A stretch of 63,708 nucleotides of DNA, the filler included, from Folioceros fuciformis (lineage: Eukaryota): assembly GCA_049999805.1 (NCBI GenBank). It is 18 parts of 18 records of this genome, joined end to end, with 100 filler letters (N's around TTAATTAATTAA, not from the genome) between each part and the next. Parts side by side here need not be neighbours in the genome. Positions count along the whole stretch, not along the records: positions 47,260 to 60,363 come from JBNGIO010006905.1; 17 more parts are not named here. The stretch is one strand, 5' to 3'. This document shows positions 8,461 through 62,836 of this stretch, in pieces. Made by a program: the position numbers and the translations under genes. Within the stretch, counting starts at the first letter, position 1. Each line of letters starts with the position of its first letter. The notes beneath the pieces were generated by a model. The model was not told the DNA's origin. It saw only the letters and a program-made list of their open reading frames with translations, and did not search any database.

Positions 8461-8560
8461 NNNNNNNNNNNNNNNNNNNNNNNNNNNNNNNNNNNNNNNN
8501 NNNNTTAATTAATTAANNNNNNNNNNNNNNNNNNNNNNNNNNNNNNNNNNNNNNNNNNNN
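8461..8560. other. Artificial assembly spacer N44-TTAATTAATTAA-N44 (first of 17)
   Basis: Identical 100-bp spacers start at about 8461, 10531, 12531, 15638, 20749, 22757, 24167, 28581, 31424, 34373, 35577, 42110, 43647, 44985, 47160, 60364 and 62136. The core gives stops in all six frames. Confidence 0.98.
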
Positions 8561-10530: not shown

Positions 10531-10630
10531 NNNNNNNNNNNNNNNNNNNNNNNNNNNNNNNNNNNNNNNNNNNNTTAATTAATTAANNNNNNNNNNNNNN
10601 NNNNNNNNNNNNNNNNNNNNNNNNNNNNNN

Positions 10631-35676: not shown

Positions 35677-36954
35677 TGCAGATGGGAGCGTACCGGGGCG
35701 GGGAGAGCACGTTCGCGGTCGTGGGGCTCTCCTCCCGCCGGCTGCACGACGTGGGCAGCCCCTGGTTCCGTTGCGCGTGGGAGGAGCCCGGGGAGCGCCA
35801 GGTGCGCGGGGCGGTCGAGGTTCTCAAGCCGGACTGGGGCATGGGCCAAATCTACACCGTCCTGGTGCTCAATTGCTCCTTCCCGGGCCCCGTCGGGACG
35901 CTCGCCCGGGGAGGCTCTCTGGTCGTTGAAGCCGGCTACGGCAAGTCCGACAGCTTCTCCCCGCCGGAGATTTTCACCGCGCTGGAGGAGGCCTCGGGGG
36001 AGTACAATTCCCGGCTCTATTCCTGGGAGGAGCCCCCCGCGCACGACTTCCTCTTCTGCGGCTCGCCCTTGTTCGGAAGCCCCAACCCGCAGCGGATACG
36101 GGAGTGGGTGGCGTACCACGCGCGCCTCTTCGGCACAAGATCCCTCTTCGTCTTCCACGACGCCGGGGGAATTGACGGTGCAGTCCGGGAGGTGCTCCAG
36201 CCCTGGGAGCAGGTGGGGCTGCTCGTCGTGGAAAATGTGCGCAACCAGGCTCGCTACGACGGGTACTACTACAACCAGTTCCTGGTGCTCAACGACTGCC
36301 TCCACCGCGCACGTTTCTTGGCTCGCTGGGTCTTCTTCTTCGACATCGACGAGTTCCTGGTGCTGGAGCCGGGGGCGACGCTGCTGGAAGTCATGAACGG
36401 CTTCCGTAACTTCACCCAAGTGCTCATCCCACAGCGGCGCATGTCCGACAAGCTCTGTGCGTACGGCACCGATTCCGAGTAAGTTCTGGACAAGGGCGTG
36501 CTGTGTCCGCGAGGAATATGGGGTAATTGCGTTGGGCTTTGCTGATGGTGTGAGCGGGTGTTGCTCTTCTTGTGGCAGCGACCAGGAGCACTGGGCGGAG
36601 GAGAGGCTGGTGTACAAGGCGGTGGTGGCAAGGGAGCTGGAAACCAAGTACGCGGTGCAGCCCGGGAACGTATATGCCACAGGCGTGCATCGCACAGAGC
36701 AGTTTCAGGGACAAAGCACGATTGCTGAGGCGGACAGGTTGCGGTATTACCATTTTCATGGCAGCATCGGCTACAAGGGCCAGGTGTGTCGGGAAGTCCC
36801 TCGCCGGGATCTCACCCACTCCTCTCTCTTCAGGAGCTCGGAAGGCGGTGTTTTCGAGCTCGATGACGGCTTGGCGAGGTCCATTCCCTCCGTTCGAGAG
36901 TTTGAGTTGGCAGCCACAGGACGGCAACCTTTCGTTCCTGGAATCGTGTCGTGA
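35677..36954 (+). CDS. GALS: Galactan beta-1,4-galactosyltransferase (GT92/DUF23), copy 1, 5' truncated; intron 36479-36578
   Basis: QMGAYRGG..TFAVVGLSS, PDWGMGQIYTVLVLNCSF, CGSPLFG, REWVAYH, YYYNQFLVLNDCLHR, FFFDIDE, KYAVQP, YYHFHG. Confidence 0.93.
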
Positions 36955-39033
36955 CAGGGAATGCGTTCCAAATGGGAAAGATCTCAGGAAGGTGCGGCCG
37001 AGAATGGGATCTCCTGCATGTTCTTGGACCGTTGCTGCATGTGATGCCGCATCGGGGGACATGGTTCAGCTTGTGTGATGGTGGGTAGGGTTGGAATGTG
37101 CAGTGCATGACTATACCGTCGAGCCAGCTTTGTCCAGGGCTTCTCAGCCACAGCTCAGAGCAGTTGGTACAAGGATACTGCCTACACGGTAACACGCCAG
37201 TGTGACGGCAATCAGGTCATGGGCTAGACGATGGAACGTACAGTGGGAGCCAGCTCATAATATGTGATCTTCATCTGCGAGCTGGTAAGTAAGTTGGTGA
37301 CAGAGCCACGGGAGTAGCGCTTTTAGTCTTCCATAAACTTCAGCATGAAAGCTTCGGCGTCAGTCTGGAAGTATCCGCTACGCCGTTTTGCGCACCCACA
37401 AGATTCATCGCCTAAGAATCAGGAAGGGACTCTCACTACCTGCACTCTCTCCTTTCCTCTTGTGTGCGCAACGTAGTCCAAGAGCTGTACTTTGATGATG
37501 AGCTCCTCTCCCCCTACCGGATCCTCTGAAGCAGGTTTTCTCAGATGTATTCCGTTAAGACGGACTCTGTAAGCGTCATAAGGGGCTGGATGAGCGCTGT
37601 CCATCACCTGCACAGCCTACCTCCTCCTTGCCCTACACAACCCAGCCATGAGAAACATTGATGTATAAGAACCTACCTCGTTACCAGATCCTCCTCTTGG
37701 TCCTGCACTGGGGTAACACGAGCAAGCATAACAAGCAATCGCGAACTCCCTGTGATCCCTTGTCATCGTGTGAAAGGTGGCCAAGGTGTTGTTGATTCTG
37801 CCGAAGTAACCCCCCTTGAAGAAGACGGTGAAAAGAACGCGCACAGAGACGCACAGCTACGGAAGTGGCAGTCCAGGACGGATGTGGAACAACAGCTCCA
37901 TTTCTAGCTCAAGGCTGCCATACCTCCACGTATGGCTTCTCAGTTGAACTCGAGCTGGGGACGCTCTTCTTGCGCATCTTGAGGCAGCGGTGGAGAGCAT
38001 TGATCTAGTCGGGTGTTGGGTTCCCAAGGTGAAGCCTGTAAAGCTCCAATCTTTTGAGTTCCATGTACCCTGGCAGCCAAAGGCAGGTTGGTGTGTGTGG
38101 CTGAGACGGGTCCCCCACCCTGTCAGGGAAGCTTTGTTATGCAGACACTCCACAAGCCCTTCAACGATGGTAGGGAACTGGTACTGCAGCAGGCAATGCA
38201 TTCACCTTCGCCTTGGCTGCGCAGCAGGCCAGGCGACAACTGAAAACCAAGAGGCCACAGAAGTGGCCAAGGATTGAGTGCTTCCGCCGGCGCAGATGGG
38301 GCAGGGCTCCCCGCAGCACCCGTTGACATGAAGGTCCGCTACTCATCAGTCCTTCAAGACTGTACCGCTGCGCATGTAGCAAACAGATCTTCGTACCTCC
38401 GTTGCACAGGCCAAGACATTCGTGCGTGTGGCACGCAATTCAGTTCACCTGTGACTGAATCTCCAACTTCAGAGTTCGCAATGCTGAAGCCGAAGGGGCC
38501 GACTGGACAGCGGAAGGACATGGTGGACAACGGTACACATCTCTTCCATTCCTCCCCAAAGCTTACACATTTCTAGAAGAAGCGACGATTTCGAGTACCT
38601 GCACACATCCACATTAGCCACTTCCTGTCCAGGAAACCTGACTCATCTTAAGAGGTTGAAAACTACATACGTAGCCCGTGTCCCGTTTCTCCATCCCCAC
38701 CTCGATGGTAGCAGTAGTCGGCCCAGGGAGATTGCGCGACTGTGGGTCCGCCTGTAAAATTAGATCTGAAATCTCAACAAGGAGCCAGGTTTTGCAGATA
38801 TGTGCTTTCTGGCTGGCTGCACATCAGCTTGCCAGCCTGTCCTGTGGGCGATGAGCGAAGCATCCCTCACACTGCCCTCCTGATCGCATTCAGTTTGTGG
38901 CCGGAGCCCATCTGGACCCATTGCGGCTCTGATCCACCTTGGCTTCTCTGGCAAGTTCTCTGCATTAAGGGCTAGGCTACATGAGGGACATTCGATCTTC
39001 AGCTGTAGCACGCGGTTTGTGTGCGCGAGCAGG

Positions 39034-40569
39034 ATGAAGCTCAACGCGAAGGTGCGGCAGGCGCCGGAAGGCTGCCTCCAAATGGCGGTGGCGGGCCTGC
39101 TCACGGTCGGCGGCCTCGTTGCGCTGCTCACCATGATCTGGCCGTCGCTGCTCCTCGGGCCGCGGCCCCCGCGACTGCAGGCCTCAGGAGCCGACTCCGG
39201 AGAGCAAGGCAGCCTCGGAGGCCACGGCCGGCTGCGGCAGTTCACGGAGCACGGCCGGGTGGCCGCTCTCTTCGTTCAGATGGGCGCATACCGAGGCGGG
39301 GACAACACATTCGCGGTCGTGGGCCTCTCGTCCCGCCGGCTGCACGACCTGGGCAACCCTTGGTTCCATTGCGACTGGGCGGAGCCCGGGAGGCGCTCGG
39401 TGCACGGCTGGGTGCTGGTGCAGAAGCCGGACTGGGGGCTGGGCCGGATCTACACCGTCCTGGTCCTCAACTGCTCCTTCCCCAGGCCCGTGGGCACGCG
39501 GGGTCGCGGAGGCTCCCTCCTCCTCACCGCCGGGTACGGCAACTCCGACAACTTTTCCCGCCCGGAGGAGTTCTCGGCGCTGGAGGAGGCCCCGGGGGAG
39601 TACAACCCTCGGCTGTATTCCGGACAGGACGCCCCGGCCTATGACTTCGTCTTCTGCGGCTCGCCGTTGTACGGGGACCTTAGCCCGCAGCGGACTCGGG
39701 AGTGGGTGGCGTACCATGCGCGCCTCTTCGGCCCGAGATCGCTTTTCGTGTTCCACGACGCCGGGGGAGTCGAGGGCGGAGTCCGGACGGTGCTGGCGCC
39801 ATGGGAAAAGCTGGGGCGGGTCGCTGTAGAGAATGTGCGCAACCAGGCCCGGTACGACGGGTACTACTACAACCAGTTCTTGGTGCTCAACGACTGCTTG
39901 CACCGCGCCAGGTTCCTGGCCCGCTGGATCTTCTTCTTCGACGTGGACGAGTTCGTGGCGGTGCCGTCCGGGGAGACGCTGCACCAGCTGATGGAGGATC
40001 TCGGCAACTACACCCAGGTTATGATCCCGCAGCAATTCATGTCCGCCCGATTCTGCGCGGACGAACGGAAAGACTTCGATACTGCGTAAGTGTGTGGATG
40101 AACCCCCGGGGCCTCCACAAGCAATATGGGTTAAATCCGTTAGGGTTTCTTGGCTGATTTGTGTCTCTTGGTGTGTTGTGTCACTCGTGTGCGTGGCAGG
40201 GACGAGGAGCACTGGGCAGTGGAGAAGCTGGTCTACCGGGCGGTGGAGCCGTGGGGCAGGCAGCTGGATCCCAAGTACGCGGTGCAGCCGAGGAACGTGT
40301 TCGCCACCGGGGTGCATCGCACAGAGAATTTGCTGGGATTCACCAAGTTTGCTGAGCCGGATAGGTTGCGATATTATCATTTCCATGGCAGCCTCAACAA
40401 CAGGGGCCCTGCGTGCCTAGAATTCCCTTCCCCGGATCCCAGCAACTCCTCTCTTTTTCGGAGCTCGGATGGCGCCGCGTTTGAGGTTGATTACGGGTTG
40501 GCGCGCTCTATTCCCCTCGTGAAAGAGTTTGAGCTGGAAACGATAGGACGGCAACCCTTCGTTCCATGA
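39034..40569 (+). CDS. GALS: Galactan beta-1,4-galactosyltransferase (GT92/DUF23), copy 2, complete; intron 40086-40199
   Basis: N-terminal TM helix (type II Golgi topology), the same GT92 motifs (FFFDVDE) and the same intron position as copy 1. Confidence 0.95.
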
Positions 40570-47259: not shown

Positions 47260-50200
47260 GGGGCGGAGGTATGGGGACTATGGGTGGGTTCTGGAGGGGT
47301 TTAAGTGTTTGGTGATGTTTGGGGAGTTGTTGCGGGGGCAGCTTGCAGAGCATTATGGTGGAGTTGTGGATGTGTTGCTGGAGAGTTTGGGTGCGGAAGG
47401 GAGGCCAGGGAATTTGCAACGTAGGTGCGTGGTGGGGTTGAGTACGACGGGGCTGACGTCGGGATGCCTGACTTCTCAGCAGTTGCACGGTTTGTTGCAC
47501 CTTAATGTTGAGCTGCTGTCGCTACAGGGGAGTGCGTTGAGTGGAGTAGCTGCTGGCAAGTTGGTGGAGTTTGGGTCCTCGTTTTCGAACCTTCGGCTTC
47601 ATCCTAACCGAACTGTGACGGGAATTGTGTCGGCTACTTACCTGCTGCTGCTGCAGCGGGGTTCTCCTGCTGTTAGGGACGTTGAAAGGTGCCTGGTTGA
47701 TGAGATGGTGGTGCTCAAGGGTTGTTTAGAGCAGAGTTGTGTGACAGGAGGTCGGACCAGGTGGGATGGTCAGAAGGAGCGTGGTTCGATTGGTGACGCC
47801 AAGGGGTTGTTATTTTTGTCGGATGCCGAATGTGTGGCATTGTTCCGGTTTGATCTGATGGCTTTGGTCGGTAGCGTATGTCTGGCAATGGAGACCGGGA
47901 ACATGGCTATAGGCATTGAAGAGAAAGGAAGTTATGCAGGGTCGGATTTGCACTCGCACGGCGTGAGTGTCCTGCTGAGGCTGAACGAATTGAGGAAGTG
48001 TATATGGGAGAAGCTGAATCCATTTAGTAACCCTCTACAGTGCTATCCTGATGTTCAACTCGCAATAGTGCGAGCGCTACACAGGTTGGATCGCGCCCGC
48101 CTCTGGAACCAGCGAGAGCTACCTCCTGAGGATACTAACGAGGTGAAGGAGTTTCTGTCAGCTGATGAAACTAAGCATGAGTTGGGTATAGAGCACCAAA
48201 GGTTATTTTTGTTTGAAAGCAGTCACATAATAGCTCAAGGCTTAAGTGCTTCTGCAAGCCTGTCTGTGAAGCTTGAAGTTTTGAATTGGATCAATAGCTT
48301 GTGCGAGGTAGTCTTCGTTTGCAGGCAAGCTGCCAACAAAGACAGAGACAGTGTGGCAATGAAGAGTGGCATTTGCAACGATTCTGCTGGCGGAGGAGTC
48401 AAGTCACCAGCAGCAGACTCTAGTATTGTGACCATTGGGCAGATAGTCCCTGCTATAGTCCCTGCAAATCTGCTGTGGATGCTCCTTGCAGCAGCGTCAG
48501 ACAAGGAATCGAAGGTGAGAGAGCGTGTGGCAGCAGTGCTGGAGGTGCTTTTACAAGCGGAGGTTATTGACGTATCTCAGGTGCACGCTGTAGCCATTGT
48601 TGCTCTGGAGCAGTTGGGTGACTCTGAGCCGGCATTGCAAATTGCGTACAGGCAAGTCCTGCTTGCCTACGGTCCTGCAGCTTTGTGGACCGACAATGGG
48701 AAGGCTGGTGCTGCAGGTGCCAGCCGTCCTGGCTTTTTTGGGTTCAATGACAGAAAACCTCAACATTGGAAGGCAATTTTTTCCTTGAAGCCATTTTCCC
48801 AACATTTGCGTGCTCAGCAACTCATTTGCATCCTGAATTATGTTGCACAGCGTTGGCAGGTTCTTCCCTCCCATTGGGTGCAAAGATTGGTGCACAGCTC
48901 TCCTAGCTATGTGAAGTCAGGGACCAAGCCTTTGGCAGAAGAAAATGTTCCACAGCATGATACTGTCGTGTCTGAAACCAGTGCAGAAGCCGTGGACCCC
49001 TTGGCGGCTGGGGTTTTTTACTTTCTGTCGAAGGCTTGCTCAAGCAACAACCTTGCAGCGCATTGGTGGTGTATTCAAGAGGCTGCACGCTATTGTGTGG
49101 CTGTCAGGCTCCGCACCCACCTTGGTGGGCCTACACAGACCTTCTCTGCTATAGAACGTATGCTGCTTGAAGTGGCACAGCTTTTGCAAGCAGATGGCCT
49201 GAGGGAGGTTGCAGGGCTTGGCAGTACGTCGAGTGTGCGTTTGTTGCCTATGCGCCTCTTGCTTGAATTCGTGGATGCGCTAAAGAAAAATGTTTATAAT
49301 GCTTTTGATGGGTCTCTAGTGTTACCTGCTGCACCATCTGCAAGTGCTCTCTTCTTTCGTGCAAACAAGAAAGTGTGTGAGGAGTGGTTCGTAAGAATTC
49401 GAGAAGCCTTGATGAATGCCAGCATTGCCATCCAATGTCATGCTGGCACGGTGGATCAAGCAACTTGGCGCTTGCAGGACCTGAGAGCCATGTCAGCCAG
49501 TGTCCTTCGAGAGCAGCCACCTCGTTCACAGATGTCTGACAGCATGAAGTTCAAGGTACAGCAGGATGTTGGCCGTCTTCTTCGGAATGCCTCTCTTGCT
49601 TTGTGCAGAGCACATGATGCCGATGGTTTGGTAGGTCTGCAAGTATGGGCCTCTTCAACCTTTGGTCCTCTCTTTGTCGATGACGGGTTGGTCTTGCAGA
49701 GGGCTAGCAGCCCAATGGGACCATTTGGCTGGATGGATGGGCTTGCATTTCAGGGTCGAGGGCAGTATGAGCAGGCAGCAGCTCACTTTGCTCACTTGCT
49801 GCAATCAGAGGAGGCATTGGGTGCCATGGGAGCCGATGGTGTGCAGTTTACAATAGCTCGGACGATTGAGAGCTATGTAGCAATTGCTGATTGGGAGTCT
49901 CTTGATTCGTGGTTGCAGACTTTGCAAATGCTCCGAGCAAAGCATGCTGGCAAAGCTTACTCGGGTGCTTTAACAACTGCTGGCAATGATATGAATTCCA
50001 TTCATGCTTTGGCCCGCTATGATGCAGGGGACTTGTCGGGAGCTTGGGGTTACCTGGATCTGACACCACAGAGCAGCAATGAACTCACTGCTGACCCTAG
50101 GCTGGCCCTTCAGCGAAGTGAACAAATGCTGTTGCAGGCAATGATGCACTCCGATGTCAAAAGGGAAGATGCCTTAAAGGAGATTTCAACTTCTAGAGCA

Positions 50201-53200
50201 ATGCTGGAGGAAGCGCTGCTGGTTGCAGGAATGGATGGTCTATCTGAGGCAGCGCCTTTTATTGTGCAGCTTGAGTCTGTCAGAGTCTTTGAGGAAGGGA
50301 TGGGTGACAGCTCAGTTTCAGTAGGGCAGCCATTGAAAAGGGCTGTGCTGAGTGCTATGCCTAATGTGATTTCATCTCCATACGAGATTCAGCATCAGGA
50401 TTGTTCCCTTTGGTTGAAACTTCTTAGAGTCTATCGAGCCACAAATCCAAGCTCACAGCTTACACTGCAACTTCAGCAGCAGCTTGTGAAACTGGCAAGA
50501 AAGCAGCATAATTTCAAGCTTTCCCATCGATTACTTCCGTCATCTTCAGTTGAGGAGGTGCTGAATGCAAGAGCTTCGACTGATTCGGGGTGGGAATCAC
50601 TGAAACTAAGTTTTGAGTTTGAAAGTATTCTTCTTGTGTTCGCTGAGGACAAGCAAGATGAAGCAGTTGAAAGATTATGGAATTTTGTCCATGATGATCT
50701 GGCACGCTGTTCACAGGGGCCTCCATTTGAAGCTGTGGATGGGAATAGGAGCTTCATCAAGGCGAAGGCCTGTTTGAAGCTTTCGTCCTGGCTAAGCTGC
50801 AAAAAGCACCATTTGTCTCCAAGTCTGTTGTTGAAGATGTCTCTGGACACACGTGGAAGTGTTGGCTGTGAAGAAGAGAACTTGTCCCAGGTCAGGGGAG
50901 AGTTGACCTGTCCTTCAAGTTTAGAGGAGGTTGTTGGGGCATCAATGAAGGTTGCCACCGCAATTTGTCCAGGAAGGGCCAAAGCCTGGTTTTCGTACGC
51001 CTGCTGGTGCTATGAACATACAAAGGGCTATTTCTCAGGAGCATCTCTGATGCCCAAGCCAACTGCGTTTTCGCAATTACTTGAATCAGAAGTGAATGGC
51101 AGTGACAGCAGTTTGACAGAACGCGAGGTGGCCATTATCCGCCACATCATTGTCACTGCTTCAGGTGGGCAAGCTTCAAGTTTGCTCGTGATTTCCGATT
51201 CAGAAAGTGTTGACGAAGGTAACGCAAGCTATGCTGAGTCCTTGGTTCAGCGCATTGTTTTTGTCATGCAAGCAGCTGCTGGAGCAGCAGGAGTTGAAGA
51301 TTCAGAGGGTGATTCTCCCGCGACTCTCCTTTCTTTCCAGCTGCAGCAGGAGCTGAAGGTCCTTCAGCTGAGTTCATCCCATTGCATCTCCCTTGTGAGT
51401 CAGCTGATGACCATATGGTGGGCATTGCGCCGACGAAGGGTTATTTTGTTTGGCCATGCTGCTCGTGGGTTCTTGCAGTACCTGTCCATGTCGAATTATC
51501 AGCAGAAATCAAGGACTCAGGCCAGTCTATTTGACAGAGGGAAAACAGAGAGGAAGGATACTAGTCTTCTTGCATCCTTGTATGTGCTCCGAATCCTGCT
51601 AAATTATGGTGTAGAGCTGGAAGAATCTCTTCAGCAAGGTCTGTCCATGGTGCCTCCTTCCCCTTGGCAGGCCATCACCCCCCAGCTCCTAGCCCGCCTG
51701 AGCAGTCATCCTGAACTGCGGGTGCGGAAACAGCTCCAAGGATTGCTGATTGCCTTGGCCAATGTTTCCCCTTGGGCAATTGTGTACCCAACTTTAGTGG
51801 ACTACAATGCGTGTGAGGGAAGTCCTTCAGATGAACTACAACATCTCTTAGGTTGCCTGGGAAATCTTCACCCTAAGCTTGTGGGGGATGTGCAAGTGAT
51901 GATTGCAGAGCTAGGATCGATTACTGTTCTTTGGGAGGAGCAGTGGCTAAGCACCCTCCAGGACTTGCACAGTGATGTAGCACGGCGGATCAACACGCTC
52001 AAAGAAGAAGCCACCAGAGTAGCTGAGAATCCTACATTGAGTCACACAGAGAAGGTGCGTATCAATGCAGCCAAGTATTCAGCCATGATGGCTCCAATTG
52101 CTGTTGCTTTGGAGCGTAGACTCACGTCAACATCAAGAACTCCTGCGACTCCTCATGAAGTATGGTTCCAGGAGCATTTTGGAGGTCAACTTAAGGCAGC
52201 AATTTCTGCTTTCAAACTACCCCCAAGTGGGTCGGCATTTCTAGGTGATGCATGGCGGCCCCTAGATTTGATTGCCGCATCTCTTGCAAATTACCAGAAG
52301 AAGTCAGCTACTGTTCTGGCTGATGTGTCTCCGTTGCTTGCTGCTTTGAAGTCATCTGAGGCACCCATGCCAGGGCTTGAAGTAGGTGTTTCAAACCACC
52401 ATGCTGAAATAGGTGGAGGGCTGAAAGGGCCCACTGTTGCTGAAACGGTCACCGTGGCCGCATTAGATGAGCAGGTCCTGATTTTGTCTACTAAGACAAA
52501 GCCAAAGAAACTGTCTCTGGTTGGGTCTGATGGCCAACGATACAGGTACTTGCTCAAAGGCCGAGAGGACCTTCGGCTCGATGCAAGGATTATGCAACTT
52601 TTGCATGCTGTGAATGGTATGCTATCTGCGAGTAGTCACACAAGACGGCAAGGACTCTCTGTGAGGTATTACTCTGTGACCCCTATAAGTGGCAGAGCTG
52701 GTTTAATACAGTGGGTTGATAACCTAACAAGCATGTACAGTGTATACAAGGCATGGCAGCAGCGCACGCAAGCTGCCCAGTTAGCCCCTAATCCTGCAGG
52801 CACTAGCGGTTCTAATGTTCCACCAGCCATTCCACGTCCCAGTGATATGTTTTATGGGAAGATAATACCTGCCCTGAAAGAGAAGGGTTTGCGGAAAGTG
52901 ATTTCGCGGAGGGACTGGCCCCAGGAAGTGAAGCGAAAGGTCTTGTTGGAGCTGATGAAGGAGACGCCTCGGCACGTTCTGTACAAAGAGCTCTGGTGTG
53001 CCAGCGAAGGGATTACTGCTTTCTCCTCAAAGTTGAAGCGGTTCTCTGGAAGTGTTGCTGTTATGAGTATGGTTGGCCATGTTTTGGGACTGGGGGACCG
53101 TCACCTAGACAATATTCTTGTGGATTTCAGTAGTGGCGATGTTATACACATTGACTACAATGTCTGCTTCGACAAGGGTTTACGCTTAAAAATTCCGGAA

Positions 53201-56200
53201 ATTGTTCCTTTTCGCCTTACGCAAACAATCCAAGCAGCTTTGGGTTTGACGGGGGTGGAAGGCACTTTTCGAGCAAGCTGTGAAGCAGTTCTGGAAGCCT
53301 TGCAAAGAAACAAAGAACTCATTTTGATGCTCTTGGAGGTGTTCGTATGGGACCCTCTGGTGGAATGGATGAGAGGTGATGGTCACGATGAGGCCACAAT
53401 TGGTGGAGAAGAACGGAAGGGGATGGAATTGGCTGTAAGTTTAAGTCTCTTTGCCTCGCGCGTCCAGGAAATCCGAGTTCCTCTGCAGGAGCATCATGAC
53501 CAGTTGCTTGCCACTCTTCCTGCTGCTGTGGACTCACTTCAGGCATTAGTAGAGGCGTCTGAGCACTTTGAGAAGGCAACCGCAAGTAGCTTACTGACAG
53601 AACAGAAAAAGTCCTCTGCTGCCAAAAATGAGGCTGCTGCGCGAGCTGTCATGAATGATGCGTCCTCAGTTCTAGATAAGGCTCGATTGACCTATGAGTC
53701 ACAAGCTGTGGAGTTCACGCTTGCTAAGACCCTCGTCACAGAAGCCGCCAAGGATTTTACACAGTGGATTGAGCACCAAGGTCGAGTCTTGGAGTCATTA
53801 CGCAGTGGTTCGGTGTCTGAAATGCAGGCCATAGGACAGCTTCCCAGTCCTGTTGAAGCATTATCACTCACAGCAGCAGTTCTTGCGGCCGGAGTTCCTC
53901 TGACAGTTGTGCCAGAGCCTGCACAAGTTCATTGCAAGGAGGTTGATAGGGAAGTGGCACAACTCACTGCTGCAAGACATGAGTATCTTCTGCATGCAGC
54001 CCGAGCACTTAGAGCCTACTCTCTGGCATTGCAGCGCCTTCTTCCACTGAACTATGTAGGAACTAGTCATGTGCATACTTGGGCTCAGATCCTGCAACGT
54101 TCTGTTAGACAGCTTTCACCAGATGTTCTTACTGCGGCTAAAAGACAAGCAGCTGACCTTATTGCTAGACGTTCTGGGGAACATGATGAAGCTGCACGGC
54201 ATAAATACGAGGCTGTACGCAGGCATGTTGAGAATCTCGTCGAGGAGTCAAAAATGTTGCGGGAGGCCCATGCTGAGATGGAGAAGTCTATTGATCCAGA
54301 TGCCGAGAAGAAGGCAAAGGATCGGTTGGTGGGGATTTTCACAAGACACCTTCACGGTGGTAGTCACTTGATGAAGAAGGAAGATGATGGCATTGACTTG
54401 AAGGACAAGGATCTGGAAAGTGAAGACAAAAAGCTGAAGCTGATTGTAGTACTGCAGGCTGCTGCAAGGACATTGTACACTGAGATTGCTGACGCGGTAT
54501 CAGAACTGTGTAATGCATCAGACCCTGCATTGAAATTAGGAAATAGTCAAGAGGATGAGAATGATCAGAAATGGTGTTTACCCATACTGCAGAACCTGAC
54601 AGAACGGTGTGTCCTTGTGTCTGAAATTTTGGATGAAATTCAGCGAAGCATTACTACTGACACTGAAAATCGATCTGTCTCTGCATGGAGTTCAGCCGCT
54701 CCTACATCTACAGAGTGGGCTGTGAGGTGCAGAGAGTGCATTGTAGGAGTGAAGGATCTTGTCAGCCAAATGGTTGCAGTGGTGCTTCCGGAGGCCATCA
54801 AAGCTGCACTATCAAATGACCCAGCAGTTCTGGAAGCCTTTGGTGCCCTTTCTGAAATCAGGGGGACTGTTGACTCAGCTCTGGAGAAAGTTTCGGAGAT
54901 TGAACGGCAAAGATCATCACTCGGTGAGTTGGAAAGGAGCTATCCGGCAAAGTTTGGTGAGATTTCCCAGCAACTAGCATCCCTGGAAGAAGCTGCAATG
55001 AGTGGTAGGGATCACCTCTCGTGGGAAGAGGCTGAAGAGCTTGCTAGTCAGGAAGAAGCTTGCCGTGCTATGCAAGATAAGTTACACAGAGCATGGGCCC
55101 AGCGGGGTGCACAAGCTAGTGCTTTGTCACGACAAGAAGCAGAAGTACAATCCTCTTTGATATCTGCAGAACAGCGATTTGATTCTCTGGTTGAGATTGA
55201 TAGAGATGCCGACTTGCACCTTATGCGAGGGAAAGTCCTGCTTGCAGCTTTTGCCAGGTTATTCTCTGGACTTGCAGGCCTGGATCAGGCACTGGGTGTC
55301 TATGAGCACGAGAGTTTGCAACAAAGAACGCGTGGTGGTCAATTGGACTTGATGAGGGGCTACATGCTTGAATCTGTCTGGAAGGCATCAACTATCCTAC
55401 AGGACAAAACATTTTTTGTATGGAAAGTTAGAGTGATGGACGCTTTACTCGAGAGTTGCATTCAAGATGCCTTACCATCGGCAGAGGTGGGTCTCACTAA
55501 TGACCAATTGCTCAGTGATCAGAGGAAAAGACGCGAGGAGCAGCTTCAAGGCTATTTGGACCAATATCTGAAGGAGAGAGTGTCTACTGTTCTTCTTGAC
55601 GGCCTGACAACTGGAAGACAATGGTTGGGGCCAAGCACCAGTGCTGAGGAGGATGAGGCTCATGTAATCGGAAAGGAAGCAGAGCCTGTGAAAAGAGCCT
55701 TGCGCCTGCTCCGAGAATATTGTGATATTCACGAAGCCGTTAGTGCGTCCAAAGCTGCTGCTGCGTCCATGAAGTTGCAACTACAGGATGTGACTCAAAG
55801 TTTGCAAAAAGCTCAGCTGGAAGCTGCCCAGTTGGAATGGCTGCATGAGGCTGCATTATCGCGATCCATTCCTCAAAGTCAGCTACTTGGCATGCCAGCC
55901 TCAGTGGCGGCAGATTCAACCTTACCTAATGTGGCATGGTGGAGTCGCCAACAAGTCCTTGGGAACCTTCGGTCCTCTATTGCTAATATCACACAAGCAA
56001 CAGAAGGTTTATTAGCATGCGATGTTCCAGGAAGCTCTGCTGAAGAACAACTAGATAGGGCTATGGCTTGGGCATGTGCTGGTTCTAGCAGTTCCACATC
56101 AAGTGGAAATACTTCAGTGAGGAATGTAGGTATTCCTCCAGAGTTCCATGAGCACCTTCGCCGAAGACGCCAGCTTTTATGGTCAGGTCAAGAGCAGGCT

Positions 56201-57595
56201 TCTGGCATTGTGAGGTTGTGTGAGGCTGTTGTGAACTTCGAGGAATCCAGAGACGGTTATCTCTTGACGACACCTGCTTCCAACAATGTTGATGAGAAAA
56301 CGGACTGGCAACAGGCATGCCAAAATCTGCTTTGTAGATTAGAAAATGTCTGCCTCTCTTTCACCAGATCTGATTTGCACTGCCAGGCATCCCTGAAAAG
56401 TAGAGAGGAGGCAGCTACTTTATTAACAAGTGCAGTGCAGGAATATAAACGAGCAGCCACAGAGGCAACCACTGCCACGCTGGAACTCCGGCGTACTAGC
56501 GAAGGACTTCAAGAATACATCGTCCACTCGGCAGCTGTGGTGAGTGCTTTTTGCCAGGTTTTATGTCACCACTCGGCGCTGTCAGTTGAAAGTGGCACCA
56601 TGCTTGAAGAGGTTTTAGCTATAACTGATGGAGCCGCGGGTGCCACAGAGGTGCATAGCCTGGCACAGGAAGCGTCAGCAGAGCATAGCCGGATGATGGT
56701 TGACCTGAATAAGGTTAGCGGACTGCTTCTGCCTGTGGAACCACTTCTGGCTGCCTGCTGTACAGCCATCACTAACAACAAGAGAGTAGGAGATGCCGAC
56801 ATTAAGGCAGATAGTCTGAACCTTTCATCGGTGCAGTCTTTTCGTCTGCGGGATGTTCTGCCTTCATGTGTGGGTATTGTGCCTGGTCTTCTTGACTCTG
56901 TGAGAAGACTGCACTCTACTCTCACTAAGTTGGCGCGTACTGCAAGTTCTGATGCTGGTGTGCTCCATAAAGCTTTGGAGGGGTTAGGTGAAAGCCAAGG
57001 GGTTAGATCTCAAGACATCGAGGCCCCAGGAGGCCTAGCCCATCCAGAAGTCCTATTCCCCAATGACCAAGCCGAGGGCACTGTTGAGCCATTGGTGGAG
57101 CTACGTGCAATGCATGGGGAGTCAGTCCTGGAAGAGGATCTTCTGTTGGATGATGATGAAGACAACTGGATCTCTCCTCCCGACAGTGACCAAACTGATG
57201 AATCAGCATACTTGTCCAACAGGACAACTTTGGATAATATCTCCCAGAACATGAAAGCCACAGGGGTACCCTCGACCAGTACTGCTGCTGAGAATCAAGA
57301 TGGGGAAGACGGGCGTCCGGGGATACAGTTGAAAGTGCAGAGGACAGCAAGTCCAGCTACTTACAGCAATGTGAACTCGTCGGCGTCTCTTCCGTCACCC
57401 CAAGTGGAACCTCAGAAAGAAAAAAATGCTTACGCCGTTTCTGTACTGAGACGTGTGCGAACAAAGCTGGAAGGTCGCGATATTGATGGCAGCAGGCATC
57501 TTCCTGTGTCAGAGCAAGTTGATCATCTGCTTCGTCAAGCCACAAGCATTGACAACTTGTGCAACATGTTTGAGGGATGGACTCCTTGGATTTGA
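47260..57595 (+). CDS. SMG1: SMG1 PIKK kinase (nonsense-mediated decay), 5' truncated, one uninterrupted 10.3-kb frame
   Basis: TKTKPKK, YLLKGREDLRLDARIMQ, LGLGDRHLDNIL, IHIDYNVCFDKG, PEIVPFRLT; a long insertion between kinase and FATC (SMG1 hallmark); FATC ...QATSIDNLCNMFEGWTPWI*. Confidence 0.97.
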
Positions 57596-59232
57596 TTTGC
57601 CACCTGCTGCTAGCACGGCTGGATAGACCCTCGGAGAAGAGTACAGATCTGGAACAGCGAAGAGGACAAGACGTGACCCACTCAAAGAATTGGAGGTATT
57701 GCTGACTTTGGGTCTTCTTGCAGTTGTATATGGAGTGCTGGATCATTGGACCACTGACATGTGTTTTGGCTTGGCCCAGGAGTGTGAAAGGACAATTGAA
57801 GTCCATAGTGACACGAAATTCCAAACTGTGCTTTCAAAGCTTATCTGGGCCAAATAAGGTGGTGGTCCCATGTTAAGCATGTGTCACTGCCCGCCCTTTT
57901 CGTGGATGTCTCATTTTCTGAAGTCATCTCTAGGTCTTCAATCACTTGTTTACGCAGTCAGGTCTTTCTGGGGTTGTGGTATGTCCTGCAAAGGCTGACA
58001 ACCGGTTGAAACTGTCAATCTGTTTTGGTAGACGGGCAACGCGGCTGGGGATCCACCCTAGGGCCGTGTTTGAGCTTGGGGAGGTACATCTGAGGTGGAA
58101 ACTGTTTCGATGTACGTAAGGGCTTGCTAGAATCCAGTATACGGTATACTTCGTACCAGTGCTAGGGACTGATGGTAGTAGCCGGGACTGTTGCTTGGTT
58201 CCCATGAAGCTACTCTTCGAAGAGGTTGACTCAAGAGAAAGCAATGGGTTCAACTTTGGCACAGAACGCTTGACGGTGTCCTCACTCACCATGGCGGTTG
58301 GAGAAGCAGAGAGCATGAACAGGATGATGCAAAGGTACACAAGAATCTTCTCCCATAGGTACAGATCATAACTTCTTTGGTCCACAGGCAAACGAATACA
58401 GGAGATGCTGCTGCAGACATTGAAAGTCTGGATGTAAGGAGATTTAACATGGAGAATTTGTGATGAAATAAACGAGGGAAACTTTGAAAAGCCAATGGAG
58501 GCTAGCCTTGTTATAAAACAAAACCGCCAATGCTCTCAGTCGGATAGGAGCGTCCGGTGTGTTGTTGGCTCTTGGCTTCTGCTGATTGTGACAATAATAT
58601 TACACGTACATGTGTGTGTGGTATATATGTTTGTCCAAACCTCTTGATAAACGATGTCGACAACGCCAAACCCAAAACACGCGACAAGGCCCCTTCACGT
58701 GCGAGCAGCCCTAATCCGGCTATGACAAGCCGTGAGCTACTGCTGCGTGCTGTCTGGTGTCACTTGAAGGTACAAGTTCCCACGCCATTGCAGAGGGGAA
58801 CATCCTATCCCAGCTTTTGGCTGGTCGGGAAGGGAAGATGAAGCGTACATCCTCACACTGGTGTACAGAACAATGTAAACCCCAGAAGACCCCAAACTTG
58901 GACTTGCTTCTTGGAACCAAGAACTCCCAGCTGTGTATGAATACAGCACGCTCTTCCCTACCCTCCCTGCACCTGGCAGCCAAGACCCATCGTCTGTTCA
59001 TCCACACTAGGCACCTGTGAGAGGACGTTCTTGCCAACCAGGAATCGAATCATGCATACAAAGGGAGGAGATGTGAGAAGATCGTATCAGAAGCAGTTCG
59101 ACGCACCAACAAACAGACAGTACAGTATGTAGCTAGAGACACTTGATAACTGACACGTGATGGAAGGCACTACAGGCACTGACCACACGTTCCTCATGCT
59201 AGCCAACCAGGCATGTGTAGATCATGGAGTGG

Positions 59233-59601
59233 TTAAGACCAGTATAGCTTTCCAGTGAGTGAGCTGAGGAGCTCGGGATACTGCACTCCCTGCATTTTGG
59301 TGACCTTGCCAATCACCCTTGTTAGAATGCTCACCACATCTTGGATTTGACAATGCTTTAATGATGGCTCTCATGAAAGCTATGGTGAAGTTTGTGCCTT
59401 CCTCAACATTTCTGAAGGATAAATCTCCAGGACTGGTGGAGAAGACGATGAGAAAATCTTTCGCATGATACAAGGGTCGAATTCTCTTGCTTGCAACTTG
59501 GCTTCCCTCAACGTTTGGCCCCTAGGCTTTGCTGGTAGTGACAAGGTTGGCGGGGCTCAACCCCTGTGCTTTCATGCTTATGTCTTTTTTATCCTTTAAA
59601 C
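59233..59601 (-). pseudogene. Decayed terminal exon encoding an animal-type caspase linker and small (p10) subunit
   Basis: After acceptor ccgtag (phase 1): (G)LKDKKD...KA*GPNVEGSQVASKRIRPLYHAKDFLIVFSTSPGDLSFRNVEEGTNFTIAFMRAI, a +1 shift near 59362, then LKHCQIQDVVSILTRVIGKVTKMQGVQYPELLSSLTGKLYWS*. In-frame TAG at 59522-59524. Confidence 0.75.
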
Positions 59602-59767
59602 CTACGGTTTGAAATTAATCATGACACAGGCAGAAAATATATTTTTTATCCTTGAAATCGGAAAAAAAAAGGGTTTATGAGAACAAAGAGTATGAATGGA
59701 CATTCCAAGAATTATGTGTGGACTTCCACATAGAGGAGCTCGGGATACTCTTCCACTCACCAAGATT

Positions 59768-59872
59768 GAGTGAGTCATACCTCGTGAGTTTGCAGGTCGT
59801 ATCATGCTTGGGAAATAGAGAGTGAGTCATACGTCGTGAGTTTGCAGGTGGTATCGTGCGTGGGAAATAGAG
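59768..59872. repeat. Two-copy 52-bp tandem repeat upstream of the caspase-like exon
   Basis: gagtgagtcatac.tcgtgagtttgcaggt.gtatc.tgc.tgggaaataga twice in tandem. Confidence 0.8.
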
Positions 59873-62836
59873 GTCCCGCAACAACAATTGCGTTTTTCTT
59901 ACTGCTCACCACAGAATAGCTTGTGGGGTTTGAGACAGCTCTCGAGCTTGAGACAGCTCTCCCATCCCGTAATGAAATCTGGTGCACACATCCACGGGAT
60001 GAAAGCTGTCCGCATTTCGTTCCCCACACTTTGGCGCATAGCTATTACCAATCCAGAGCAGTGACAGCAAACAAACGAGGTGGCACACCCTGCACCACAA
60101 ACGCAATCTGCGGGCATTTCGGCAGACATCAGACCGCACTTTCAGCAGTTGACTTGAAGTAGCGGGGCAACTTTCAGTTTTTTGGCATAAACGTGTTCAA
60201 GCCGTCCAGAACCGGGTTTAGGGTCGATTCAAGTGCCTCACCGAAACGATCCCGTTTCGTTCAACGCTCAAACCCGGTTTCGCGAGGCGAAGTCGGTACA
60301 CGACTGGCCGTATGTATTCAAGGGAGAACTCCGTAGGTATAGGAGAGAGGAGAGATGGAGAGCNNNNNNNNNNNNNNNNNNNNNNNNNNNNNNNNNNNNN
60401 NNNNNNNTTAATTAATTAANNNNNNNNNNNNNNNNNNNNNNNNNNNNNNNNNNNNNNNNNNNNTCGTAGAACTCGTACCCCAACTGCTCGCAGACCCGGC
60501 GCACAGCCTGTCATACCACGCCCTGCATTTCCTGAGCTCTGTCGTCCATTCAACCAGACCAACCCGGTGGCTACATTGTCCATTCTAGGCACTCTACTCC
60601 CCCGCCCACACCAACCTCGGCATACTTGGCAGCAGCCTCCCCCACGTAAGTCTGCCGCGTGCTGCTGTCCAGCACAATTGCACTCGCCTTCCTGGGCCGT
60701 GCGAACGCGTCCGCGGCTCCTGCCGCCACAGCCAGGGCAGCCCAGCTCATGCTCCAACTCCATCTCCAGCTCGGACCTGGCCCGGGCCTGTCCCCGTCCC
60801 CATCACCCCCTCCCCCGCCCGGGAAGAGGAAGGTGGGGCCGCAGCCTCCATCCCCGCCTGCCGGGAGCACGGGCATCGGATGCTGCTGCGCATTGCGGGC
60901 AATGCGGGGGTGGATCGGGACGGAGGGTCGTGGAGGCGGCAATGCAGCTCCCGGAGAGTGATGGGTTGGGCGATTGACGCCATTTGTGGGCGACAGCGGG
61001 AGCGCTGGGCAAGCCATGAGCGAGTGGAGGAGCTCACTGACCGGGCTGCCACCTTCACCTTTGACTCCACATTTGTAGCCTGCAGGCCCGGGCTCCGGGA
61101 AGCATGATTGCACTGCGCCACATTCTTCTCCTGCTTTTTGCACAGTGTTTCTGGTTTGCTCAGCTGTTTTTGCATCTGATCCTGGATTCCCTCGCATGTC
61201 CTCGGTGCTACCCTGTCCCATGTTTCGCTTCATTTGTAATAAGCTATGACGAAGTCATATCCTATCCTGGATATCCATCCATGGCAATATAGCAGGAAGA
61301 TTAGTCGTAAGGATATAAAAACCCAAACAAAACATTTTTCATTATTTAAATATGTCCCAATCAGCATGCCAAACTGATTCCTTCCTACTCCCATTCATAA
61401 GGAGGCGATGACTTATTTATTTTAGAAGAACTAGATGGAAAAATCATCTACCCCTTTCATAAATTCTTTCCAAATACAGCAGAAGCAAATCATAATATGT
61501 GCCCTGAAGCATAAATTTATATTTAGAGACATACCTTCCAAACGAGCATGTCATTATCATCAACCTTATGCTTTTTTTAGCATGCTAAGGAAATATCTCA
61601 TTACTTCAAAAGAATGCTCGACTACCTCTTACTGACTCTCATATAGTTGTCAACAATCCATTCGCAACTATCTAGACCAATTGTTTGTAAATTTAACTTC
61701 TAAAATAATTATTCACTAATAAATTATCTTTCTATCGTAACTTTTTATCTACTTGTTGTTTACTTGGGTTTAACGTGATGACTTTATCTTCCACCCACGC
61801 TCATTCCCCACTTGTTATTGGCTTGTATGAGATTTGTTTGCACAACAAGCTCAAACGGATGCAACTATAAACCCCATGACTTTCTAAGTCACAACAAGAT
61901 CTTACGTGGATAAACAAAGTTTAATATTTATTTATTTATGTATTCAATTTCACAAAACACATGTGTGCATTTCTCTCTATGGTGGTCAGATATCGTATGT
62001 GCATTAACTTTTGAAAGAGCAAATAACTTACTCAAGATGCAACGTATTAAATAAAAGTTATCAATTATTGAGATCATTTACAATCTTTACAATTGTCTAG
62101 CCTATGCTCTTGGCTAAAGTCTAGGTACTCAATCCNNNNNNNNNNNNNNNNNNNNNNNNNNNNNNNNNNNNNNNNNNNNTTAATTAATTAANNNNNNNNN
62201 NNNNNNNNNNNNNNNNNNNNNNNNNNNNNNNNNNNATGTTTAGCGATCCAATAGGGACATGCTTGCTACACTAATTTAGTTCTTGTTTCCTTATTTAATT
62301 AGTTTTTTAAATGTTAATTAAGTTATTCTATTTTGTGAAAGAAATAATATAATTATTGAAATAATTATATTAATTAATTCTAATTATTTATATTTAATTA
62401 CTATCAATAAAATATTAAAATGGATTGATTATAGTTAGGACCTGGTTTATTTGTGGTTCCTCGGCGGAAGGGGAGGGTTCCCAATGTCATTATGGGAAGG
62501 TTCCGATGTCATTTAGTGTTTTGATCTCCGGCCGGCTGTGGGCAGCTTCCGTAAGCTACGTCTTGTGTTTCGGATCCTGTTAGAGCATAGGAAAGTCTCG
62601 GTTGCGGCAGATGTACCAAGGAGTATCAATCTAATTATACTCAACCGAATTGATCTTGGGAAGTACGAAGGACAGGATGCTTAATCCGGTGTTGTTGTAA
62701 ACTTGCATCCGCTTGGACTAAGTGGTTAGGACTAACAGCTGCTGCTTCATAGCTCGCAGTGTCAGTAATACACGGAAGGGCGACACGTGGTGAAAGGCAG
62801 TGGGTGCAGTGTTAACAAGGTGGTGCAAGGAAGAAC

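Follow-up and report, generated by a model that had tools for sequence, protein, structure and literature searches.

Does this plant carry a piece of an animal-style caspase, and if so, is the piece a resident of its genome or a stray? The question arises from a window of 63,708 nucleotides (the whole stretch of DNA that was analysed) of Folioceros fuciformis, in which a short minus-strand stretch near the gene for the kinase SMG1 resembles the small subunit (p10) of caspases. Excerpts of PMC5756287 and PMC10896300 describe caspases as restricted to animals and plants as having only metacaspases; the PMC5756287 excerpts also place metacaspases and caspases in a common Pfam family, PF00656, with a p20/p10 fold class, and passages of PMC11218826 mention caspases only as CARD domains. 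None of the literature matches listed describes, by title and abstract, a streptophyte caspase of animal type. On the view that plants have only metacaspases, plant 'caspase-like' activities are therefore assigned to unrelated proteases.

We found what appears to be an animal-style caspase piece in an unexpected host. The window copy is probably a pseudogene fragment, one of a caspase-like family that resides in the plant genome in many copies and is transcribed; on this reading, the stretch would be a defunct copy of the exon that ends the coding sequence of an animal-style caspase-like gene and encodes its small subunit (p10).

Organization of the locus

The window consists of 19 contigs of ~1-13 kb, strung together by 18 spacers of the form N44-TTAATTAATTAA-N44 that are 100 nt each (e.g., 8461-8560, 10531-10630 and 62136-62235), and contigs side by side in it are not necessarily genomic neighbours. 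The caspase-like piece and SMG1 share one ungapped contig, 47260-60363, the largest in the window, and the first-pass annotation was right to place them together within this interval. The caspase-like exon is convergent to SMG1 and lies ~600 nt past the 3′ end of the SMG1 mRNA; the contig stops 760 nt upstream of the exon (Table 1).

Table 1. Features of the SMG1 contig, in window coordinates
Feature	Coordinates	Strand	Remarks
SMG1 kinase gene, 3445-aa uninterrupted ORF	47261..57595	+	N-terminus lost at contig start
SMG1 3′UTR	57596..58623	+	X3 contig covers 57778-58623 and ends there
84-nt GT..AG intron in SMG1 3′UTR	57696..57779	+	~100 nt past stop; skipped in X3, retained in X1/X2
Multi-copy region	58760..60363	.	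Reaches contig end; from summed contig depth
Putative caspase-like p10, second half (frame B)	59233..59356	-	Stop at 59233-59235; Pfam below cut-off
Extra base, frameshift	59357..59357	-	Frames A and B meet; absent from one paralog contig each in X1 and X2
Caspase-like p10, first half (frame A)	59359..59521	-	Conserved core ~59362-59486; Pfam, phmmer, BLASTP
In-frame TAG upstream of conserved part	59522..59524	-	From sequence
Candidate linker part of exon	59525..59601	-	Behind AG at 59602-59603; U-rich tract then AG
17-nt exact second copy of 59266-59282 (codons ..YPELL..)	59733..59749	.	467 nt upstream
Two tandem 52-nt units, 92% alike	59768..59871	.	Inside repeated region, on exon upstream side

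Minus-strand 59222-59521 is a single open frame (frame A) that begins directly after the TAG; its residues 1-54 contain ..DFLIVFSTSPG..SFRN.., and the residues beyond are unrelated. Frame B, on the same strand, spans 59233-59370, where ..SILTRV..QYPELL..LYW is followed by a stop. The earlier description gave a single TAG plus a 1-nt insertion as the lesions of this stretch, correctly, because the frames switch at ~59357, where a paralog is one base shorter. Depending on where the exon starts, the TAG is either a second defect or intronic: the acceptor proposed earlier for an exon edge at 59601, where the exon would open within a split QACxG glycine, seems plausible from its U-rich tract followed by AG, and the exon may instead start at 59486, with the TAG possibly intronic, because one contig of an RNA-like run departs from the window there. 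The window copy has no intact reading frame, and with the insertion, the upstream TAG, and no p20 part within the remaining 760 nt, it is unable to make a protease.

Similarity to caspases

Frame A matched Pfam PF00656 over profile positions 151-193 with an E-value of 1.1e-4 and 22.4 bits, the cut-off being 21.4 bits, and frame B matched positions 194-233 of 233 (E 0.049) with 13.7 bits, below that cut-off; the two matches are exactly consecutive on the profile and reach its last position. With the 54-aa piece as query, phmmer found six matches at E<=1e-3 among 1.84 billion representative proteins (best E 5.5e-6). Four of the six are animal caspases, one of a cricket, one of a snail and two of oribatid mites, which themselves carry PF00656 at E 1e-65 to 6e-122; the remaining pair consists of a low-complexity protein and an Ig-repeat protein of 3397 aa. 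Against cricket caspase-1, BLASTP of the first half gave E 4e-8. In an Atlas feature search, 24 of 30 matches fell in the Peptidase_C14 set (top score 0.90). We also built a local caspase HMM from 12 caspase units of the four phmmer caspase matches; among 1877 six-frame ORFs of the window, it matched only the frame A ORF (E 8.8e-10), and it gave 44.5 bits to the read-through with an X at the break, although it is not fully independent, since the matches were picked using the query. Chance similarity was considered as an explanation and rejected on the results from Pfam PF00656, phmmer and the local HMM over the 1877 ORFs.

The stretch had previously been described as colinear with caspase-3 p10. 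On PF00656, the two frames are in colinear order, and the likeness was overstated for the second half: frame B alone gave a non-significant E of 8.8 in BLASTP against the cricket caspase and contributed 5 bits to a p10-only HMM, a score that 3 of 300 shuffles reached. The C-terminal tail motif of caspases is of the Q-x-P...L-T..L-Y-F type.

In caspases, the arginine of the p10 motif S-W-R-N lines the Asp-binding S1 pocket. The S-F-R-N of frame A aligns to the S-W-R-N of Spodoptera caspase-1 (by HMMER) and to that of cricket caspase-1; the S-x-R arginine is therefore retained, as the first-pass annotation had it, with S-F-R-N sitting on the SWRN of a solved insect caspase. The window piece resembles animal effector/initiator caspases (MEROPS C14A, e.g. 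insect caspase-1 and human caspase-3; p12 chains of Spodoptera caspase-1 and caspase-3) in that its p10 core, ..DFL..ST.PG..S.RN..G..F.., aligns with theirs. It differs from them in comprising only the C-terminal third, with a broken frame, in multiple copies and in a liverwort-like plant host. It also carries Phe in place of the Trp of SWRN and GTNF in place of GSWF; identity to the animal caspases matched by phmmer is at best 37-54% over 26-32 residues, and to known caspases at most 54% over 30 residues. These data support a caspase-type p10 fragment that keeps the S-x-R-N arginine. Only the C-terminal third of a caspase, ~90 residues, is represented, and the assignment is backed by these ~90 residues only, because the p20 part (His/Cys) was not found in the window: none of the 1877 six-frame ORFs matched it with the local caspase HMM, in agreement with the earlier remark that no p20 exon is visible here.

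A multi-copy family in DNA and RNA runs

Three public runs carrying the same organism label were compared with the window: X1 and X2 are DNA-like and come from one sample (2025), and X3 is RNA-like and comes from a separate study (2017). X3 skips the intron in the SMG1 3′UTR (a 5718-nt contig is spliced across it and ends at ~58623), whereas X1 and X2 contigs keep it; X3 thus holds spliced RNA, and X1 and X2 are DNA. Depth over SMG1 was 12.3-14.3 in X1 and 9.5-9.7 in X2, which is the single-copy level. From ~58760 to the contig end, the depth summed over contigs at least 90% alike was 39-346 in X1 and 31-214 in X2, with its peak over the caspase-like exon. The region thereby reaches 3-25x SMG1 depth, from many contigs 90-99% alike, and although summed contig depth is not copy number, many distinct variants exist. 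By likeness to the window, the 164 X1 pieces fell into 34 at >=99%, 47 at 95-99% and 83 at 90-95%, and up to seven variant contigs cover one position in X1 (59385); there are at least about eight sequence variants over single positions, with a summed depth some 20-25x that of the single-copy flank.

One paralog contig in each of X1 and X2 is without the base at 59357, at a depth of 12.7 of 42 in X1 and 10.9 of 26.2 in X2, the X2 contig being 202 nt long with 17 differences, and frame A continues into frame B there because the base is missing. Most copies differ from the window at several sites, such as Ile for Thr in ..NF(T/I)IAF.. and, in the Q-x-P-x tail, Cys for Tyr and Gln for Glu; going by the tail motif of caspases, some of these substitutions would make the sequence more caspase-like.

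In X3, depth was high over 58759-58937 and 59117-59653 (up to 1026, against 36 for SMG1), dropped to ~zero over 59654-60011 and returned to a moderate level after 60012, much as exons and an intron would appear. Copies 90-93% alike formed X3 contigs with depths of 112-247, and one X3 contig tracks the window as far as 59540. Each of the X3 pieces listed over the exon has 7-12 differences from the window, so none of the transcribed copies listed is the exact window copy. Paralogous copies are present in the DNA of the organism and diverged ones are transcribed. Paralogs elsewhere in the genome had been guessed at, and the copies in DNA and in X3, one of them free of the frameshift base, bear the guess out; the multi-copy state and the RNA evidence are new here and extend the earlier interpretation. 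Separately, the last 350 nt of the contig (60012-60363) are multi-copy in DNA too and ~94% like part of a 3051-nt X3 contig that reaches past the contig end.

Fragment amplification or a once-complete gene

The copies would derive from a once-complete caspase-like gene, and a member still intact, if there is any, should act as a cysteine protease whose S1 pocket is lined by arginine and accepts Asp. A realistic but less likely competing account is that only a gene fragment was amplified, that is, a p10-like exon in a mobile element or a tandem/mosaic repeat, with no complete caspase gene. Repetition extends over all of the 1.6 kb up to the contig end, non-coding sequence included, with the contig ending inside the repeat, and a 17-nt copy of exon sequence lies upstream of the exon. 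In one X3 contig, a 58862-58937-like block adjoins one that is 60276-60363-like, so that the block order differs in other copies. The 760 nt upstream lack p20, and the 10 exon variants listed comprise six nonsynonymous and four synonymous changes, which gives no sign of purifying selection among them. Each of these points favours amplification of a fragment. Against it, neither a transposase, a reverse transcriptase nor a terminal repeat was found in 58720-60196, where 10 flank ORFs gave nothing below E 0.03 against Pfam; the RNA-like depth looks like exon and intron, with high values on the exon and 3′ of it and values near zero over 59654-60011; and the X3 contig that departs from the window at 59486 runs 198 nt further with sequence absent from the window, which implies that other copies have more upstream sequence. 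No second copy turned up in the other 18 contigs when the window was compared with 58600-60363 by self-BLAST and with the two peptide pieces by tblastn.

Gene fragments are known to be amplified inside plant repeats by Pack-MULE and Helitron elements. The window piece is like such captures in being a partial exon without the rest of its gene, with many diverged copies, and transcribed; it is unlike them in that the 1.6 kb in the window has no element termini or transposase and the parent gene type is not known from plants.

The first 30 letters of the 198-nt X3 extension, translated by hand, are in frame with the exon and contain Ala-Cys-Arg 18 residues before the DF motif; the preceding codon ends in T and cannot be Gln. 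The Ala-Cys-Arg may be taken as a lead only towards a catalytic motif. A far bolder reading, which we regard as unlikely, is that the plant has an expanded, transcribed family of true Asp-directed C14A caspases, some of them catalytically intact, which it obtained by horizontal transfer from an animal or from an element associated with animals.

Assignment within the C14 group

Our preferred reading of a resident caspase-like family uses the C14A label, which is based on which proteins match, not on a tree. It is rather improbable that the stretch is instead the p10 of some other divergent C14 gene, be it a metacaspase, a paracaspase or an orthocaspase-like gene of bacterial or fungal type, which happens to score best against animal caspases. 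Such an origin is favoured by the breadth of PF00656, which spans all C14 groups, by there being only ~90 residues to judge from, and by rank 3 of the Atlas feature search, a Mucoromycota cluster with PF00656 in 26% of its members. The protein searches argue against it. A PDB search returned 89 distinct sequences at E<=10, and all 60 listed of the 89 are caspases, including insect caspase-1, caspase-3, a Drosophila caspase and an ancestral effector caspase; the four real matches among the 1.84e9 proteins are caspases as well. No metacaspase, paracaspase or orthocaspase was among the phmmer and PDB matches listed. Metacaspases and orthocaspases are far more numerous than caspases in genome and metagenome collections. 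With the NCBIfam (prokaryotic) models, both pieces together hit 0 families.

The plant, fungal and protist metacaspases (C14B) share Pfam family PF00656 and the p20/p10 fold class with the window piece; unlike it, they cleave after Arg/Lys and are without the SWRN arginine, to which its S-F-R-N aligns, and none is found among its listed phmmer and PDB matches. Two large protein searches gave no relatives among plant proteins; one of them, a word-indexed search of longer proteins with residues 1-56, returned five candidates, none of which scored. None of 25 pattern matches in a scan of viral contigs was confirmed, nor was any of 452 matches in a metagenome scan by protein patterns, and a metagenome scan with an exact 27-mer gave 0 matches; these viral and metagenome scans provided neither support for viral origin nor further copies.

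Plant host and probable continuity across the join

The contig had been taken as that of a plant host, and SMG1 agrees: its kinase region is 75% identical to that of Marchantia, 74-75% to those of two Riccia species and 72% to that of Calypogeia, with Ginkgo, a lycophyte and angiosperms as the next matches after the liverworts; the top match, at 82%, is a Logan protein. An Atlas search with the kinase part was uninformative on taxonomy. The other window contigs encode Methyltransf_29, a plant family, as well as GT92, P450, CPSF73 and a LINE reverse transcriptase. The host is therefore a bryophyte of liverwort-like kind.

The exact window variant is tiled by contigs over 58670-58838, 58813-59253, 59241-59429 and 59408-59698, with depths of 14.9-17.3 in X1 and 12.4-17.7 in X2, near the SMG1 level; the first, of 169 nt, bridges the unique flank into the repeat, and the second, of 441 nt, bridges the flank and the exon end. 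Continuity from SMG1 into the caspase-like exon is therefore likely. It is not independently proven, because X1 and X2 are one sample, possibly the source of the assembly, and no contig among those listed spans SMG1 to 59601 in one piece, some overlaps of the exact contigs being just 13-26 nt.

Contamination or a chimera, in which DNA of a small animal or other organism on the plant was mis-joined to the SMG1 contig, is very improbable. In its favour, every real match is an animal caspase, including two of oribatid mites, whose habitats are moss and soil, the join sits at a repeat, where assemblers err, and X1 and X2 come from one sample. Against it, the best identity to any animal caspase is just 37-54% over short spans, the exact window variant occurs at SMG1 depth in both runs with short contigs bridging the flank into the repeat, and a separate study, eight years earlier and under the same organism label, has the family in its run too. 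The GC content (0.46-0.51) and CpG observed/expected ratio of the exon region are like those of the SMG1 part, a weak argument against contamination, as the similarity in GC, GC3 and CpG is non-discriminating.

SMG1 and other contents of the window

The SMG1 coding sequence is intronless over 10.3 kb, which is unusual for a plant SMG1, and contigs of the DNA and RNA runs are colinear over 55000-57693. An 82%-identical relative of 3905 aa was found on a 24.7-kb Logan contig. Under established rules of nonsense-mediated mRNA decay (NMD), an intron as far past a stop as the one in the 3′UTR makes an mRNA an NMD target. Because this intron lies ~100 nt after the stop, the mRNA of SMG1, itself an NMD kinase, would be an NMD target, and an NMD feedback loop on SMG1 mRNA is possible.

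Elsewhere in the window, a glycosyltransferase-like protein of the GT92 family is encoded on the plus strand of each of two GC-rich (55-61%) contigs (35677-37000 and 38884-40569); the two proteins are similar and hence paralogs. A LINE-type reverse transcriptase occupies one contig (43748-44984, plus strand), and its two overlapping frames suggest that this copy is frameshifted.

Significance

As mentioned above, we consider the window copy to be, probably, a decayed fragment of a caspase-like family that resides in this genome in multiple copies and is transcribed. If the bolder reading, unlikely as it is, were true, no true caspases would have been found in plants before these members, and the window would hold a decayed member at a cluster edge. 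If only the fragment was amplified, the locus would still document an unusual gene transfer. A resident, multi-copy, transcribed bryophyte family that resembles animal caspases and retains the S1 arginine would reopen the view that caspases are confined to animals, if any member is intact.
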